NCBI RefSeq assembly: GCF_988242995.1
Contig: NZ_OZ547043.1
Length of the DNA: 64,000 bases
Direction: 5' to 3' (one strand)
The position numbers were made by a program, and so were the translations under genes. Positions 958 through 9,535 of this stretch are shown one piece after another. Position 1 is the first letter of the stretch, and every line of letters starts with the position of its first letter. The notes below the pieces were generated by a model. It was not told the DNA's origin. It saw only the letters and a list, made by a program, of their open reading frames with translations, and made no database searches.

Positions 958-1134
958 TTACGTTTGAATATTGCTTGAAAGGGTAATCACCTCACAGGAA
1001 ATTATTGCCCTAAGCAAGTGTTGTAACTTTCTGCTGATTTTGTAGAATCGGGTAATTTGGTTAAAAAGCCGCAGCAAGGGACTGTTTTTGCAGCGGCACA
1101 GCGTTCAGACAGTTATTTTGTTAAATGTATTAAC

Positions 1135-3483
1135 ATGCTGAGTTTATACGAAAAGATAAAGATAAGGCTGATAATTTTATTTTTATTGGCAGCACTGTCA
1201 TTTATTGGCCTTTTTTTCATCATTAACTATCAACTGGTATCGGAACGCGCGGTAAAACGTGCCGATAGCCGCTTTGAACTTATTCAGAAAAACGTTGGCT
1301 ATTTCTTTAAAGATATTGAACGTTCGGCCCTGACATTAAAGGACTCACTGTATTTATTAAAAAATACAGAGGAGATTCAACGCGCTGTGATCCTTAAAAT
1401 GGAAATGATGCCATTTTTAGACTCGGTGGGACTGGTACTTGATGATAATAAATATTATCTCTTTTCGCGGAGGGCGAATGATAAAATCGTTGTTTATCAT
1501 CAGGAAGAAGTAAATGGACCGCTTGTCGACGAGTCAGGGCGGGTTATTTTTGCCGATTTTAATCCATCGAAACGACCATGGTCGGTGGCTTCAGATGACT
1601 CTAACAACAGCTGGAATCCGGCCTACAATTGCTTTGATCGTCCGGGTAAAAAATGTATCTCTTTTACGCTACGCATCAACGGCAAAGATCACGATTTGTT
1701 AGCGGTGGATAAAATACATGTCGATTTAAACTGGCGATATCTGAACGAGTATCTTGATCAAATCAGCGCTAATGATGAAGTTCTATTTTTGAAACAAGGC
1801 CATGAGATCATTGCCAAGAATCAACTCGCGCGTGAAAAACTGATTATTTATAATAGCGAAGGTAATTATAATATTATTGATTCTGTCGATACTGAATATA
1901 TTGAAAAAACATCAGCGGTGCCAAACAACGCATTATTCGAAATCTATTTTTATTATCCTGGCGGTAATTTATTGAACGCATCAGATAAACTTTTTTATCT
2001 GCCGTTTGCTTTCATTATTATCGTATTGCTGGTGGTTTATTTAATGACCACTCGTGTGTTCCGTCGGCAATTTTCTGAAATGACCGAGCTGGTTAATACG
2101 CTGGCGTTTTTGCCCGACTCAACGGATCAGATCGAGGCTCTGAAAATTCGCGAAGGCGATGCGAAAGAGATTATCAGCATCAAAAATTCGATCGCGGAAA
2201 TGAAAGATGCTGAAATTGAACGGGCAAATAAATTGCTCTCGCTGATCTCTTACGATCAGGAAAGCGGTTTTATTAAAAATATGGCGATTATTGAGTCCAA
2301 CAATAATCAGTATCTGGCTGTGGGGATCATCAAACTGTGTGGTCTGGAAGCTGTGGAAGCGGTGTTTGGTGTTGATGAACGCAATAAAATCGTCAGGAAA
2401 TTGTGTCAGCGAATTGCCGAGAAATATGCGCAATGCTGCGATATCGTGACATTTAATGCCGATCTCTATTTACTCCTGTGCCGGGAAAATGTACAGACGT
2501 TTACCCGTAAGATAGCGACGGTAAACGATTTTGACAGCAGTTTTGGCTACCGCAATCTGCGCATCCATAAGTCTGCTATTTGTGAACCTTTGCAGGGGGA
2601 AAACGCCTGGAGTTACGCAGAAAAGCTGAAACTGGCGATTTCCAGTATCCGCAACCATATGTTCTCAGAGTTTATTTTCTGTGATGACGCGAAACTCAAC
2701 GAAATAGAAGAGAATATCTGGATTGCGCGTAATATTCGCCATGCAATGGAAATTGGCGAACTATTCCTCGTCTATCAACCGATCGTTGATATTAACACCC
2801 GCGCCATTCTGGGCGCGGAGGCGTTGTGCCGTTGGGTGTCTGCGGAGCGGGGGATCATTTCACCGCTAAAGTTCATTACCATTGCTGAAGATATCGGGTT
2901 TATCAATGAGCTGGGTTATCAGATTATTAAAACGGCAATGGGTGAATTCAGACATTTTAGTCAGCGTGCGTCGCTGAAGGATGATTTCTTACTGCATATT
3001 AATGTTTCGCCCTGGCAGTTAAACGAACCACACTTTCATGAGCGTTTTACCACCATCATGGAAGAAAATGGCCTGAAGGCGAACAGCCTCTGTGTTGAGA
3101 TCACTGAAACCGTGATCGAGCGAATTAATGAACATTTTTATCTCAATATTGAACAACTGCGTAAACAAGGAGTACGGATATCGATTGATGACTTTGGCAC
3201 CGGTTTGTCAAACCTGAAACGTTTTTATGAAATTAATCCAGATAGCATAAAGGTGGACTCACAATTTACCGGCGATATTTTCGGTACTGCGGGAAAAATT
3301 GTGCGCATTATTTTCGATCTGGCACGCTATAACCGGATCCCGGTGATTGCGGAAGGCGTAGAGAGCGAAGACGTTGCGCGCGAATTAATCAAATTAGGAT
3401 GTGTTCAGGCTCAGGGGTATCTGTACCAGAAACCCATGCCGTTCTCCGCCTGGGATAAAAGTGGAAAATTAGTAAAAGAGTAG
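1135..3483 (+). CDS. pdeI: c-di-GMP phosphodiesterase PdeI (YliE), membrane-anchored EAL-domain protein
   Basis: ORF track 1057-3483 trimmed to ATG at 1135 ([12 protein letters not shown]...) giving 782 aa as in K-12; N-terminal TM helix, C-terminal EAL-type region (…ELGYQ…, …DDFGTG…). Confidence 0.9.
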
Positions 3484-3490
3484 TTTACGT

Positions 3491-4819
3491 ATGTCCAGAA
3501 TCAATAAGTTCGTACTTACAGTCAGTCTGCTGATTTTTATCATGATTTCAGCAGTTGCCTGCGGGATCTACACTCAAATGGTAAAGGAACGGGTGTATGG
3601 CCTGAAACAGTCCGTTATTGATACTGCTTTTGCGGTGGCAAATATTGCTGAATATCGGCGTAGCGTGGCAATTGATCTCATCAACACGCTAAACCCCACG
3701 GAGGAACAGCTGTTGGTTGGTTTGCGCACAGCTTACGCCGACTCGGTTTCACCCTCTTATTTGTACGATGTCGGTCCTTATCTGATTTCCAGTGACGAAT
3801 GTATTCAGGTAAAGGAGTTCGAGAAAAATTATTGTGCAGATATTATGCAGATTGTGAAGTATCGACATGTCAAAAATACAGGGTTTATCTCTTTTGACGG
3901 TAAAACCTTCGTCTATTACCTCTATCCGGTAACTCATAATCGTAGTCTGATATTTTTGCTTGGTCTGGAGCGTTTTTCTTTACTGTCAAAATCGCTGGCG
4001 ATGGATAGCGAGAACCTGATGTTCTCTCTGTTTAAGAACGGTAAACCGGTGACCGGTGATGAATATAATGCTAAAAACGCCATCTTCACCGTTTCGGAAG
4101 CGATGGAGCACTTCGCCTATTTGCCGACCGGATTGTACGTATTTGCGTATAAAAAAGATGTTTATTTGCGGGTCTGTACATTGATTATTTTCTTTGCCGC
4201 ATTGGTGGCAGTGATATCGGGTGTCAGTTGCCTCTATCTGGTACGCAGAGTGATTAATCGTGGTATTGTGGAGAAAGAAGCCATCATTAATAACCATTTT
4301 GAACGCGTACTGGATGGCGGGCTTTTCTTTTCAGCTGCCGATGTCAAAAAACTCTACAGTTTGTATAACTCGGCGTTCCTGGATGACCTGACCAAAGCAA
4401 TGGGCAGAAAATCCTTTGACGAAGATTTAAAAGCGCTGCCGGAAAAAGGCGGTTATTTGTGCCTGTTTGACGTCGATAAATTCAAAAACATCAACGACAC
4501 CTTCGGTCATTTGCTGGGCGATGAAGTGTTGATGAAAGTGGTGAAAATCCTTAAATCACAGATCCCCGTAGATAAAGGTAAAGTCTACCGCTTCGGCGGT
4601 GACGAATTTGCGGTGATTTATACGGGTGGAACGCTGGAAGAGTTGCTATCGATTCTAAAAGAAATTGTTCATTTCCAGGTGGGAAGCATTAATTTAAGCA
4701 CCAGTATCGGTGTAGCGCATTCAAATGAATGTACTACCGTTGAACGCTTGAAAATGCTGGCGGATGAGCGGCTGTATAAGAGTAAGAAAAACGGCAGGGC
4801 GCAGATTAGCTGGCAGTAG
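3491..4819 (+). CDS. dgcI: diguanylate cyclase DgcI (YliF), membrane GGDEF protein
   Basis: 442-aa ORF, N-terminal TM segments, C-terminal GGDEF-like region (RFGGDEF at ...[14 protein letters not shown]). Confidence 0.9.
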
Positions 4820-4888
4820 AATTAGAATAGTGTTAGTACCCCTTAATCAAGGGGTACTAATGAATGTGGTAAATCATTTGCAAACATT

Positions 4889-5218
4889 TTACTTTGCAAA
4901 AACTTCCGGCCCTTTTATTGCCAATGTATTCAAAATACGTAATGCCGGGCCGCTCGGTTTTATTTCATTACGTTCCCATTTCGAGACACTTTCTTTTGAC
5001 ATTCCCATTGTATGTGCCAGCACGGATTGTGACATGCCGTATCGGGTGCGGATGGCTTTGATCTCTTCACCCGTCATTGATTTGACTTTGGCTATACGGG
5101 CGCTGACTTCACGAGCTTTGACCATGACGGCAATGGCATCAACTTCACTATCAGACATCAGGCCCAGTGCATTCAGTTCCTTTGCATCTTCCAGCATCAT
5201 TTGTAATTTATCGCTCAT
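4889..5218 (-). CDS. XRE-family helix-turn-helix antitoxin (HigA-like)
   Basis: 109-aa ORF with HTH segment (IRTRYGMSQSVLAHTMGMSKESVSKWERNEIKPSGPALRILN); lies downstream of and overlaps the toxin ORF by 11 bp; this locus is not in K-12 gene order (yliF and rimO are adjacent b-numbers). Confidence 0.8.
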   Translation of the reverse strand: MSDKLQMMLEDAKELNALGLMSDSEVDAIAVMVKAREVSARIAKVKSMTGEEIKAIRTRYGMSQSVLAHTMGMSKESVSKWERNEIKPSGPALRILNTLAIKGPEVFAK

Positions 5219-5594
5219 TTTTCACCTCAATCAAAAAGCCAGTTTCGATCAAATCCTCTATTTGCTTATTGCTAAAGGCCAGAAATGCATTTGCCATTTT
5301 TTTGTAGGCCGCCAGTTCATCATCTTCGATTTCTTTGGTTCCTTTACTGCTTAGACCACTCTTGGACCAACCATCATAAAAAAACACATGATTTGCTGAT
5401 TTAAAAAAGATAATTGTTCTGGCTCCACCACTCTTTCCTTGTTGGAGGGGTAAACGTTTTTTGATGACACCGCTACCTAAATCAGCCTCCCATATGCCCT
5501 GCATCACTTCTTCAGCGGCAGCCATGAGAACTTTATCGTGAATACCAAGTTTTTTCGTGCTTTGGCTGAATCGTCTTGCCTTATACACACCCAT
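5208..5594 (-). CDS. RelE/ParE-superfamily toxin (HigB/Gp49-like)
   Basis: 128-aa ORF, toxin-first arrangement, motif ...KRLPLQQGKSGGARTIIFF...FFYDGWSKS... typical of Gp49/HigB-like toxins; SD AAGGATGG ~8 nt upstream of ATG. Confidence 0.75.
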   Translation of the reverse strand: MGVYKARRFSQSTKKLGIHDKVLMAAAEEVMQGIWEADLGSGVIKKRLPLQQGKSGGARTIIFFKSANHVFFYDGWSKSGLSSKGTKEIEDDELAAYKKMANAFLAFSNKQIEDLIETGFLIEVKNER

Positions 5595-5609
5595 ACATCC
5601 ATCCTTGTG

Positions 5610-5635
5610 GTAATGTTTACTATAGTAACCATTAC
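5610..5635 (-). promoter_or_regulatory. Imperfect 26-bp palindrome (12-bp arms) just upstream of the toxin start; candidate TA operator overlapping promoter
   Basis: gtaatgtttact-at-agtaaccattac read directly; position 15-40 bp upstream of toxin ATG; TA operons are typically autoregulated via such operators. Confidence 0.45.
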
Positions 5636-5819
5636 GCTTATTTCAAGTAATTGCGATCAAAACTTTAATTTGGTGTGAAAAAGTGAGAGTTGCCTCGAGT
5701 ACGATTCATTTTTCTCGATTTATGCGTCAGGGGATTTTGTGCGTAAGGGTAGGACATCGGGAAGGGCAGCAGAGGCAGATCGAAGAACAATATCCTTGTT
5801 AGATCTGCCTTAAGATTAA

Positions 5820-7145
5820 TTAAACCCGGCTACCCCACAAATCGTACTCATCGGCGTGCTCGACTTTCACACGCAGGATATCACCCGGCTTAACGTTGGT
5901 TTCACCATTGAGATAAACCGCGCCGTCGATTTCCGGTGCATCTGCCATGCTGCGACCAATCGCGCCTTCTTCGTCCACTTCGTCGATAATCACCAGAATT
6001 TCACGGCCCACTTTCTCTTGCAGGCGCTCGGCGGAAATCTGCTGCTGCAGCTGCATGAAACGGTTCCAGCGTTCTTCTTTCACTTCTTCCGGAACCTGGT
6101 CAGGCAGGGCATTGGCGTCTGCACCTTCAACCGGGCTGTATTTAAAGCAGCCAACGCGATCCAGACGCGCTTCTTTCAGGAAGTCGAGTAGCATCTGGAA
6201 ATCTTCTTCCGTCTCGCCAGGGAAGCCGACAATAAAGGTTGAGCGTAGGGTCAGTTCCGGGCAGATTTCGCGCCACTGTTTGATGCGCGCCAGTTGGCGA
6301 TCTACAGAACCCGGACGCTTCATCAGTTTGAGAATGCGCGGGCTGGCGTGCTGCAACGGAATGTCCAGATACGGCAGGATTTTGCCTTCTGCCATCAGTG
6401 GGATGACGTCGTCCACATGCGGATAAGGGTAAACGTAGTGCAGACGTGTCCAGATCCCCAGTTTCGATAACTGTTCGCACAGGCTGACCATGCTGGTTTT
6501 TACCGGCTCGCCGTTGTGGAAGCCAGTACGATGTTTAACATCAACGCCATAGGCGGAAGTATCCTGCGAGATCACCAGAATCTCTTTAACGCCAGCATCT
6601 ACCAGACGTTTCGCTTCACTTAACACTTCGCCAATCGGACGGCTCACCAGGTCGCCGCGCATAGACGGAATAATGCAGAAGGTGCAGCGGTGATTACAGC
6701 CTTCAGAAATTTTCAGATAGGCATAATGACGCGGCGTCAGTTTCACGCCTTGTTCTGGCACCAGGCTCAGGAATGGGTTGTGTTTCGGTTTTGGCACGTA
6801 GTGATGAACGTGCTCCAGAACCTGCTCATAGCTATGAGGCCCGGTGATTTCCAGCACTTTCGGGTGGACTTCGCGGATCTGATCTTCTTTTGCCCCCAGA
6901 CAACCGGTCACAATTACCTTGCCGTTTTCATTCAACGCTTCACCAATGGCTTCCAGTGATTCTTGTACCGCGCTGTCAATAAAGCCGCAGGTGTTGACGA
7001 TCACCATGTCCGCATCGTCATAGCTCGGTACCACGTCATAACCTTCAGTGCGTAGTTCGGTGAGAATACGCTCTGAATCAACAAGGTTTTTCGGACAGCC
7101 AAGGGAAACAAAGCCGATTTTCGGCTGGGGAGTTACTTTGCTCAT
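5820..7145 (-). CDS. rimO: ribosomal protein S12 methylthiotransferase RimO
   Basis: 441-aa ORF, radical-SAM CxxxCxxC ([10 protein letters not shown]) and MTTase N-terminal cysteines; matches K-12 RimO. Confidence 0.95.
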
Positions 7146-7357
7146 AGCTTAAAAAATATTCAGTTACAGGAAAGGTCAGGGCAGGGATTCTACAGAGTTC
7201 TGGATAAAATTTGTATCGCAATCTCATTCGCTGGCGGAGGCGAAGGAAATGTAAATTTTGTTAATTCGGCGTGAAGAATTGATCCTGGACAGCATTTTGC
7301 TCAAAAAATAGCCATACTATTTAATTGCAACAAGGCTGGAAAGAGGAGGATCGAAGT

Positions 7358-7741
7358 ATGTTCGTTGACAGACAGCGAATCGATCTGCTGAACCGGTTGA
7401 TCGACGCACGCGTTGACCTCGCCGCATACGTGCAACTGAGGAAGGCAAAAGGATACATGTCCGTCAGCGAAAGCAATCATCTACGAGATAACTTTTTTAA
7501 ACTGAATCGCGAACTGCACGATAAATCGCTGCGGTTGAATCTTCATCTGGATCAGGAAGAGTGGAGTGCTCTTCATCATGCTGAAGAAGCATTAGCGACA
7601 GCCGCAGTATGTTTGATGAGTGGGCACCATGATTGCCCGACTGTTATTACCGTCAACGCCGATAAGCTTGAAAATTGTCTGATGAGCTTAACGCTGAGTA
7701 TCCAGAGCCTGCAGAAGCACGCCATGCTTGAGAAGGCCTGA
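7358..7741 (+). CDS. bssR: biofilm regulator BssR
   Basis: ORF trimmed to ATG at 7358 (MFVDRQRIDLL...), 127 aa, SD GAGGAGGA upstream. Confidence 0.88.
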   Translation: MFVDRQRIDLLNRLIDARVDLAAYVQLRKAKGYMSVSESNHLRDNFFKLNRELHDKSLRLNLHLDQEEWSALHHAEEALATAAVCLMSGHHDCPTVITVNADKLENCLMSLTLSIQSLQKHAMLEKA

Positions 7742-7851
7742 AAACTAAGGGGGAGAAAGCGTCTCCCCCTTCATGTTTAAGTTTTTGTAAAAATGAATTT
7801 GTTATCTCCTCCACTGACTACGCTTTAAGCCAGAGTCAATCCGGAGGCGTT

Positions 7852-8912
7852 ATGCATCGACAATCCTTTTTCCTTGTGCCCCTTATTTGTCTTTCTTCCG
7901 CTCTCTGGGCGGCTCCTGCAACGGTAAATGTCGAAGTACTGCAGGACAAACTCGACCATCCCTGGGCGCTGGCCTTTTTACCCGACAATCACGGTATGTT
8001 AATCACTCTGCGCGGCGGCGAGTTGCGTCACTGGCAAGCAGGAAAAGGATTATCTGCGCCGCTTTCCGGAGTGCCGGAAGTTTGGGCGCACGGGCAGGGT
8101 GGCCTGCTGGATGTGGTTTTAGCGCCTGATTTTGCTCAGTCTCGCCGCATCTGGTTAAGTTATTCCGAAGTTGGCGATGATGGCAAAGCCGGAACTGCTG
8201 TGGGTTATGGCCGCTTAAGTGATGATCTCTCAAAGGTGACCGACTTCCGCACCGTCTTTCGCCAGATGCCAAAACTGTCTACCGGCAACCATTTTGGCGG
8301 GCGGCTGGTATTCGACGGTAAAGGTTATCTTTTTATTGCTCTGGGCGAAAACAATCAGCGCCCGACGGCGCAGGATCTGAATAAATTACAGGGCAAACTG
8401 GTGCGTCTGACCGACCAGGGCGAAATCCCGGATGATAATCCTTTTATAAAGGAATCCGGTGCGCGCGCCGAGATCTGGTCTTATGGCATTCGTAATCCGC
8501 AAGGAATGGCGATGAAATTAATATCCCGCAAAAAGGCAAAAACTACGGCTGGCCGCTGGCAACCTGGGGAATCAACTATTCAGGCTTTAAGATACCGGAA
8601 GCGAAAGGGGAGATCGTCGCCGGGACCGAGCAACCTGTTTTTTACTGGAAAGATTCGCCCGCCGTGAGCGGCATGGCCTTCTATAACAGCGATAAATTCC
8701 CCCAGTGGCAGCAAAAATTATTTATTGGCGCGCTGAAAGATAAAGATGTCATTGTGATGAGCGTCAACGGCGACAAAGTGACAGAAGATGGCCGTATTTT
8801 AACGGACAGAGGGCAGCGAATTCGTGATGTTCGCACTGGACCCGACGGTTATTTATACGTTCTCACCGACGAGTCCAGTGGGGAATTACTTAAAGTTAGC
8901 CCACGCAATTAG
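7852..8912 (+). pseudogene. yliI: yliI (soluble aldose sugar dehydrogenase) disrupted by frameshift
   Basis: Two overlapping ORFs (7852-8667 and 8664-8912) carry the N- and C-terminal parts of one protein; total span 1061 bp is not a multiple of 3; frame switches just after ...NPQGMAM (~8518). Confidence 0.7.
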
Positions 8913-9535
8913 CTAACGGGAATCATCACCACTTTGCGCACTGCTGGGCGTTCAGTGAGTTGCTGATACCAGCGTTGCAGATTTGGACGCGGTGTCCAGG
9001 TCAGGCCAACGTTAAACAAATTGTAGATGAACGGAGCGATAGCGATATCGCCCACACCAAACTCGTCGCCAGAGAACCATTTTACTTTTGCCAGTTCCGC
9101 ATCGAGCAGGGCAAACAGGGCGTCGCACTCTTTACAACTGGCATCAATGGCGGCCTGATCGCGCTCTTCCGGTGGTGTTCTGACTAATCCCATCAGGATC
9201 CCGCGATGAGCATTACTGAGCGTCTGGTTTGCCCAGTCCATCCATTTTTCTGCTTCCGCACGACGTGCCGGTGAGTCGATCCACAGGCGTTTTTGCCCGT
9301 ACTGTGCCGCCAGATAGCGGACAATGGCGTTTGATTCCCAAAGAATGAGATCACTTTCGTCGTCACGCAACAACGGCACCAGCCCGTTAGGGTTCATCGC
9401 CAGAAAATCAGCATCGTGATTTATCCCAAACTCACGGCCCGCGAGAATTTGCTCATAAGGTAGTTCCAGTTCTTCGAGCGTCAGCAATACTTTTTTTACG
9501 TTGGTTGAATTATTCCGACCCCACAGCGTAATCAT
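8909..9535 (-). CDS. gstB: glutathione S-transferase GstB
   Basis: ORF trimmed to [12 protein letters not shown]..., 208 aa, GST fold motifs. Confidence 0.9.

Follow-up and report, generated by a model that had tools for sequence, protein, structure and literature searches.

Background

The two-gene cassette examined here lies between dgcI and rimO in a 64,000-nucleotide stretch of an Escherichia coli chromosome (contig NZ_OZ547043.1, RefSeq assembly GCF_988242995.1; called the window below, to which coordinates refer unless stated otherwise). Its closest described relatives are the toxin-antitoxin (TA) modules HigB-2/HigA-2 of Vibrio cholerae and ToxP/AntitoxP of Coxiella burnetii. The V. 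cholerae module (VCA0468/0469; PDB structures 5JAA, 5JA8, 5J9I and 8A0W/8A0X) resides in the superintegron and has the toxin gene first; its toxin, HigB2, belongs to Pfam family PF06296 (PMC11980606). Replacement of R51, R64, Y82 or K84 of HigB2 by alanine lowered activity 170- to 3000-fold (PMC5416850), and K49 is also counted in the active site (PMC10098735). The antitoxin, HigA2, is made of a disordered N-terminal toxin-binding segment followed by a helix-turn-helix (HTH) domain that serves in dimerisation and DNA binding (PMC5416850). Footprinting and a crystal structure show HigA2 bound to a single inverted repeat that extends from after the -35 hexamer across the -10 hexamer (PMC11006873).

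The C. burnetii module (CBUA0028/0027) is carried by plasmid QpH1 and is required for plasmid maintenance, whereas the cassette studied here is chromosomal. ToxP inhibits translation, and the K79E replacement abolished its toxicity; AntitoxP binds and neutralises ToxP, binds the promoter and autoregulates the operon (PMC10098735). The HigB/HigA pairs of E. coli K-12 (YgjN/YgjM) and of Rts1 share with the cassette the toxin-first order, the RelE-superfamily fold and an HTH antitoxin, but their toxins form families (PF09907 and PF05015, respectively) distinct from PF06296. Rts1 HigB is devoid of the C-terminal helix, and the Rts1 antitoxin is fully folded and leaves the active site uncovered (PMC5416850).

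We find that the dgcI-rimO cassette is very probably a functional type II TA operon of the HigB2/HigA2 type (PF06296), in which a ribosome-dependent mRNA endonuclease would be neutralised by the N-terminal segment of its antitoxin and the operon repressed at a 26-bp operator. The stop codons of dgcI (4819) and rimO (5820) leave a 1000-bp gap, and the list of open reading frames (ORFs) places in it exactly the two minus-strand ORFs described in the initial annotation, of 128 and 109 aa. The toxin gene comes first; the two overlap by 11 bp (5208-5218), with the ATG of the antitoxin 11 bp within the toxin gene. The same order and a short overlap are seen in C. burnetii.

Family, fold and active site of the toxin

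A Pfam scan of the toxin, in which every domain at E<=10 was listed, aligned residues 1-124 with positions 1-120 of the 120-position PF06296 'RelE' model (E 7.9e-33, 113.7 bits). The initial annotation had recognised a toxin of the RelE/ParE superfamily next to an XRE-type HTH antitoxin, which agrees with this match and with the structural and HTH matches given below. Its choice of family, Gp49-like (PF05973), has to be corrected to PF06296, since PF05973 is absent from the scan even at that permissive threshold. The profiles of Rts1-type HigB (PF05015) and of K-12 HigB/YgjN (PF09907) do not match either, and no close structural similarity to these toxins was found. Judged by these profiles, the toxin is of the V. 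cholerae HigB-2/HigA-2 type and not of the Gp49, Rts1 or K-12 HigB types.

The toxin has 950 relatives among the 1.84 billion representative proteins searched. No NCBIfam model matches it, and the PHROGs collection yielded one weak family of unknown function and nothing else. A direct phmmer search against PDB sequences gave no match even at E<=10, so that a profile of homologues was needed to reach the solved structures; the profile built from 104 homologues matches the HigB-2 chains of 5JA9, 5JA8, 5JAA and 8A0X at approximately 1e-9. The AlphaFold2 model based on the same 104-homologue alignment has a mean predicted local distance difference test (pLDDT) score of 90.7 and a predicted template modelling (pTM) score of 0.86. 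The modelled chain has the RelE/BECR fold, and of the solved structures HigB2 is the nearest to it. The toxin is about 27% identical to HigB2 and longer (128 aa compared with about 110 aa), and in the model the difference includes an additional C-terminal helical extension. ToxP is closer in sequence, at 35-37% identity over nearly the full length (tblastn).

In an alignment that includes ToxP, the HigB2 residues K49, R51, R64, Y82 and K84 correspond to K45, R47, R59, W76 and K78 of the toxin, four of the five being identical; K78 is also the equivalent of ToxP K79. Across family alignments of 64 to 104 members, K45, R47 and R59 are invariant and K78 is conserved in at least 90%.

These observations bear on the proposal that the toxin poisons gyrase in the manner of ParE instead of cleaving mRNA. 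One superfamily fold carries both activities, and the Prokaryotic Genome Annotation Pipeline (PGAP) names the protein only 'RelE/ParE family toxin'. We nevertheless regard such an activity as extremely improbable, given that the toxin fits the HigB2 structures much closer than the ParE structures, that the basic and aromatic residues required for RNA cleavage are conserved in it, and that the characterised members of PF06296, HigB2 and ToxP, inhibit translation (PMC5416850, PMC10098735, PMC11980606 Table 1).

The antitoxin

The HTH profile search called for in the initial annotation returned HTH_3 (PF01381) at residues 53-94 of the antitoxin (E 3.4e-9). V. cholerae HigA-2 in the PDB (5jaa, 5j9i) aligns through its residues 38-96 with residues 47-106 of the antitoxin (60 residues, E 6e-4), and the two proteins have the same layout of an N-terminal segment followed by a C-terminal XRE HTH domain. 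AntitoxP is only 32% identical to the antitoxin and has a different N-terminus. PGAP calls the protein merely 'helix-turn-helix domain-containing protein'; we identify it as the antitoxin of the module.

Family models of MqsA and NadS match the antitoxin only below their cut-offs. TIGR03830 reaches 47.1 bits, short of its cut-off of 61.8, with the C-terminal half only, and the match to PF15731 is restricted to positions 53-125. We rejected an MqsA identity because the likeness is confined to the C-terminal domain, the score is under the cut-off, and there is no cysteine among the 109 residues, whereas MqsA has an N-terminal zinc-binding domain of the CxxCG...CxxCG type.

The complex was modelled as a single chain, with toxin and antitoxin joined by a 30-residue Gly-Ser linker and an alignment of 14 fused pairs and 50 toxin-only homologues. 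In the AlphaFold2 model (pTM 0.75) the linker is disordered, whereas residues 2-43 of the antitoxin are folded into two helices at pLDDT 88-98; these pTM and pLDDT values would fit a defined toxin-antitoxin complex. In HigA2 the N-terminal segment takes the form of a helix and then a strand.

Promoter and candidate operator

A single sigma-70-type promoter is predicted ahead of the toxin gene (Table 1), and the promoter scan of the region predicted none upstream of the antitoxin. The latter result matches the situation in Acinetobacter and Coxiella, in which predicted internal promoters proved inactive (PMC5906591, PMC10098735). The putative Shine-Dalgarno sequence of the antitoxin appears stronger than that of the toxin, and its location within the end of the toxin gene would allow translational coupling.

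The near-palindrome noticed upstream of the toxin gene in the initial annotation, where it was put forward as a plausible operator, is real: its two 13-nt arms adjoin without a spacer and are complementary at 12 of 13 positions. A degenerate form of the palindrome occurs once in the window, against 0.00 expected from 100 shuffles. Most of the promoter spacer lies within it, as do the -10 hexamer and the bases transcribed first, and relative to -35 and -10 it has the same placement as the HigA2 operator. In Coxiella, too, a palindrome lies in the promoter spacer beside a TATAGT -10 hexamer, but its core (TCACTTAGTGA) is different.

We gathered related cassettes independently of the operator: plasmids were searched by similarity at the DNA and protein levels, and species-representative genomes with a coding-sequence pattern. 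The genome-wide scan, for the peptide KEIEDDEL, gave 62 loci, but about 50 are unrelated chance matches in AT-rich genomes. Ten other cassettes with 50-74% toxin identity (from Kluyvera, an Enterobacteriaceae metagenome-assembled genome (MAG), Moellerella and Morganella, and two each from Providencia, Xenorhabdus and Proteus) have the same 26-bp block at an equal distance from the toxin start codon. The invariant or nearly invariant positions are GTA at 1-3, TAC at 9-11, TATA at 12-15, GTA at 16-18 and TAC at 24-26, and the 5-nt stretches between the boxes vary. Watson-Crick symmetry over the 11 sequences amounts to 109 of 143 position pairs at the true centre, compared with 20-55 at all other centres. 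Symmetric double changes are seen at positions 4/23 and 5/22, where GTAAT...ATTAC of E. coli corresponds to GTACC...GGTAC of Providencia. Constraint on the promoter alone does not explain this pattern, because the outer boxes fall outside the promoter hexamers. The cassettes of UBA5654 and Kluyvera have an identical arrangement of -35, 16-nt spacer and -10. More distant cassettes (Coxiella, Photobacterium, Chimaeribacter, Pantoea dispersa) have different palindromes at the equivalent place. The conserved position and symmetry make the palindrome a good candidate for the autoregulatory operator of the antitoxin. An alternative reading of the 26 bp is a tandem pair of 11-bp palindromes (GTA-N5-TAC) with a spacing of 15 bp.

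Proposed mechanism

By analogy with the characterised systems, the cassette may work as follows. The predicted promoter would drive one transcript from which the toxin and then the antitoxin are translated, the latter from a start that overlaps the end of the toxin gene and has the stronger putative ribosome-binding site. The toxin would act as a RelE-fold, ribosome-dependent mRNA endonuclease that cuts codons in the A site, with K45, R47, R59, W76 and K78 as the presumed catalytic residues. It would be neutralised by the N-terminal segment of the antitoxin, a dimer of which would bind the palindrome over the spacer and -10 through the C-terminal HTH domain and repress the operon. Loss of the antitoxin, whether by proteolysis or by loss of the locus, would free the toxin and stop translation.

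Several observations weigh against this scheme. The catalytic tyrosine of HigB2 (Tyr82) is replaced by Trp76 in the toxin; the aligned relatives have Trp or Tyr there and the family consensus has Phe, so that aromatic character is retained and the hydroxyl is lost. The base-contacting residues R68, E71, N72 and R77 in the recognition helix of HigA2 correspond to E76, S79, K80 and E85 of the antitoxin, a divergence as expected for co-evolving operator-repressor pairs. The HigA2 operator has one 7-bp inverted repeat (7-N5-7), whereas that of the cassette has four GTA/TAC boxes. Promoter-like sites in the region are not above chance (2 found, 2.6 expected), and the weight of the promoter therefore comes from its position and conservation. 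Finally, our literature search found no published study of the dgcI-rimO cassette locus, so that homology at 27-37% identity is the basis for toxicity, neutralisation and DNA binding. We infer these three properties, and likewise the biological role, be it addiction or stabilisation, stress response, or defence.

Features of the interval

The coordinates of the two genes and of the associated elements are collected in Table 1.

Table 1. Features of the dgcI-rimO interval in the window
Feature	Position	Strand	Description
Toxin gene (HigB2-like, PF06296)	5208-5594	-	128 aa, ATG start; predicted ribosome-dependent mRNA endonuclease
Antitoxin gene (HigA2-like)	4889-5218	-	109 aa, ATG start; N-terminal segment of ~46 residues, then C-terminal XRE-type HTH (~residues 47-106)
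Putative sigma-70-type promoter	-35 TTGAAA, 5646-5641; -10 TATAGT, 5624-5619	-	16-nt spacer; 10/12 consensus positions
Candidate operator	5610-5635		GTAATGGTTAC-TATA-GTAAACATTAC (minus strand); 26-bp near-palindrome, four GTA/TAC boxes
Putative Shine-Dalgarno AAGGA	5602-5606	-	7 nt before toxin ATG; read from sequence
Putative Shine-Dalgarno GAGGTG	5223-5228	-	4 nt before antitoxin ATG, within toxin 3' end; read from sequence
Unit homologous between genera	4888-5650	-	763 bp: promoter, operator, both genes, to antitoxin stop
Hairpin	4833-4860		TTAGTACCCCTT-AATC-AAGGGGTACTAA; perfect 12-bp stem, 12-nt arms 100% complementary; between convergent 3' ends of dgcI and antitoxin gene
Non-coding flank specific to the cassette allele	5651-5819		Contains hairpin 5773-5810 after rimO

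The hairpin between the convergent ends of dgcI and the antitoxin gene is a candidate bidirectional terminator. Its RNA has a folding energy of -18.7 kcal/mol for the minus strand and -21.4 kcal/mol for the plus strand (z between about -3.3 and -3.5); the scan for consensus terminators missed it because no T-run follows it. The hairpin next to rimO (folds of -16.2 and -16.9 kcal/mol, z about -3) would terminate rimO transcription. A search of positions 4600-6000 against Rfam matched no family.

Distribution in E. coli

In the initial annotation the cassette was taken to be strain-specific and absent from K-12. The absence stands: a K-12-lineage genome has 46 bp between dgcI and rimO, with no annotated gene there. 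Strain specificity does not, as 1128 of 5426 complete E. coli genomes (20.8%) have the whole 1000-bp allele at 98.5-100% identity, and in all of these it lies between dgcI and rimO. Another 4285 have the 46-bp spacer of K-12 type, and only about a dozen have something different. The locus is essentially biallelic, and the cassette allele, far from being a strain-specific insertion, is common and varies by lineage. Its carriers include O157:H7, O55:H7, O7:K1 CE10, avian pathogenic E. coli O78:H4 and strain 042 (accession CBG33750), and it is missing from K-12 and CFT073. In O157 Sakai the genes are ECs_5399 and ECs_5400, annotated as 'addiction module toxin RelE'; the Sakai allele differs from the one studied here by 13 substitutions in 1000 bp; a single one alters a protein, conservatively (toxin T86S), and the promoter and operator are untouched. 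Among the cassette-bearing E. coli genomes sampled, all those with full-length coverage have both ORFs, intact and annotated.

Apart from 5 bp (ATTAA, adjoining the rimO stop), the long and short alleles have nothing in common between the stop codons, so that the difference amounts to a replacement and not to simple insertion with target-site duplication. Neither end of the cassette allele resembles the 46-bp spacer. Signs of insertion were sought at the cassette, and there is no target-site duplication, no terminal inverted repeat and no integrase or transposase nearby. The short spacer (retrieved locus, 1621-1666) is mostly a GC-rich hairpin (CAGGCCGG...CCGGCCTG), presumably a bidirectional terminator for dgcI and rimO.

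The cassette is a variable accessory locus, and the RelE/ParE superfamily includes members that are discussed as defence toxins (PMC11980606). The module might serve mainly in anti-phage abortive infection, with the same molecular mechanism: a phage would free the RelE-fold toxin, and translation would shut down before the phage cycle is completed. We consider this role quite unlikely. In PADLOC-DB v2 no family matches the toxin, and the antitoxin is matched by generic HTH models alone; the cassette lies outside defence islands and mobile elements, among housekeeping or cyclic di-GMP (c-di-GMP) genes; a search of phage genomes for similar DNA found no match; and the characterised relatives are documented as plasmid-stabilising or stress-induced (PMC5416850, PMC10098735, PMC5906591).

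Some individual records deserve comment. Three matches of the cassette to E. coli 'plasmids' were set aside as chromosome-sized or mislabelled records. In a MAG of 'Collinsella sp.', a 1198-bp contig is 100% identical to the E. coli cassette and the 3' end of dgcI; the contig almost certainly comes from E. coli and was mis-binned into this actinobacterial MAG. In E. coli BS-01 (NZ_CP172816.1, 853513-854381) the dgcI-rimO interval is 869 bp long, with a toxin annotated at 122 aa and no annotated antitoxin, and pdeI has an internal stop; the locus is either a degraded cassette or the product of indel errors in the assembly, and the internal stop in pdeI makes a fault of the assembly look the likelier.

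Farther downstream in the window, a 55-bp deletion near 8511, between two short GATGAA repeats, sets yliI (aldose sugar dehydrogenase, 7852-8970) apart from the gene of O157 Sakai and strain 266917_2. The resulting frameshift ends the ORF at 8667 and shortens the product from 371 to 271 aa; in this strain the gene is probably a pseudogene.

Relatives in other genera, selection and origin

Related cassettes are found in Morganellaceae and Erwiniaceae (Providencia, Moellerella, Xenorhabdus, Proteus, Morganella, Erwinia, Pantoea), as well as in Kluyvera and UBA5654, with 38-74% identity in the toxin and 50-78% in the antitoxin. They share the ORF lengths, the overlap and the 26-bp GTA-N5-TAC-TATA-GTA-N5-TAC operator, and many of those in Morganellaceae and Erwiniaceae are on plasmids, beside transposases or replication genes. 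We found no experimental study of any of these cassettes in the literature. Morganella psychrotolerans has an intact copy and, in the same genome, a second one (retrieved locus, 6879-7579) in which the toxin is frameshifted over two frames and the antitoxin is intact; the second copy is a case of toxin decay with retention of the antitoxin.

The closest relatives outside E. coli belong to Enterobacteriaceae bacterium UBA5654 and Kluyvera sichuanensis, and both are found in the same gsiD-rimO/bssR chromosomal neighbourhood and in the same orientation. In UBA5654 (74% toxin and 78% antitoxin identity) the cassette lies between gsiD and an SMI1-like gene adjoining rimO; in K. sichuanensis (68% and 74%) it lies between gsiD and bssR. 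By blastn, the homologous unit (Table 1) is 75% identical to the UBA5654 cassette and 69% identical to that of Kluyvera, and nothing outside this span matched. The non-coding flanks (4820-4887 and 5651-5819) resemble neither the Kluyvera and UBA5654 loci nor the K-12 spacer; the gsiD stop region accounts for a 12-nt match to UBA5654. In UBA5654 a 316-aa ORF, which by eye looks like an SMI1/KNR4 (SUKH) immunity-type protein, stands between the toxin promoter and rimO (retrieved locus, 7759-8709), and it is not present at the E. coli position.

Between genera, the ratio of nonsynonymous to synonymous substitution rates (dN/dS) is 0.07-0.12 for both the toxin and the antitoxin genes. Synonymous sites of the cassette are saturated, and their divergence is at least that of the neighbouring gsiC and gsiD. 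These comparisons indicate sustained purifying selection on both genes. They also speak to the suggestion that only hitch-hiking has kept the cassette, either as a decaying and non-functional relic or as an HTH regulator whose partner is inert. Chromosomal TA loci are often degraded, and both the frameshifted M. psychrotolerans toxin and the shortened BS-01 locus would fit such a course. We hold it to be very unlikely for the cassette itself, in view of this low dN/dS, the intact ORFs in the sampled full-length carriers, the single conservative difference from O157 Sakai, and the preservation of catalytic residues, promoter and operator alike.

The G+C content of the cassette is 41%, compared with 42-44% for pdeI and dgcI, 53% for rimO and a window average of 50%; the entire pdeI-dgcI-cassette block (1057-5819) is AT-rich, at 41-44% G+C. 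Kluyvera and the UBA5654 MAG are without pdeI and dgcI, and there the cassette directly adjoins gsiD, so that the gsiD-rimO interval looks variable in Enterobacteriaceae. The data are compatible with long residence of the cassette in the region followed by its loss in most E. coli lineages; alternatively, it may have been acquired repeatedly at a permissive site. In view of the related cassettes in the same neighbourhood of other genera, the short allele may be the derived state.

A more elaborate scenario would make the cassette not a recent insertion but an old resident of the gsiD-rimO/bssR region of Enterobacteriaceae, which most E. coli lineages have lost and selection has maintained in the others, with a regulatory layout unlike that of V. 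cholerae, in which two tandem GTA-N5-TAC palindromes possibly bind two antitoxin dimers, and with a possible host-level role in defence or in cross-talk with the c-di-GMP/biofilm genes. It is compatible with the shared neighbourhood and orientation in three genera, with a synonymous divergence no lower than that of gsiC and gsiD, with the E. coli-typical identity of the 1128 copies, and with the conserved four-box operator; taken as a whole, we think it rather unlikely.

Significance

The module is already known and ordinary. The exact proteins are in RefSeq and UniRef on more than 1000 contigs, with the toxin named 'type II toxin-antitoxin system RelE/ParE family toxin' or 'addiction module toxin RelE', and the family has crystal structures and a worked-out mechanism. 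The present results thus matter little beyond annotation. What they add is a precise HigB2/HigA2 (PF06296) assignment, with the HTH partner named as the antitoxin; a defined putative promoter and a candidate 26-bp operator with comparative support; and a population picture, in which the cassette, present in about 21% of complete E. coli genomes, could serve as a lineage marker. The cassette and short-spacer alleles make a clean natural pair for testing the role of a chromosomal HigBA2 module in pathogenic E. coli.

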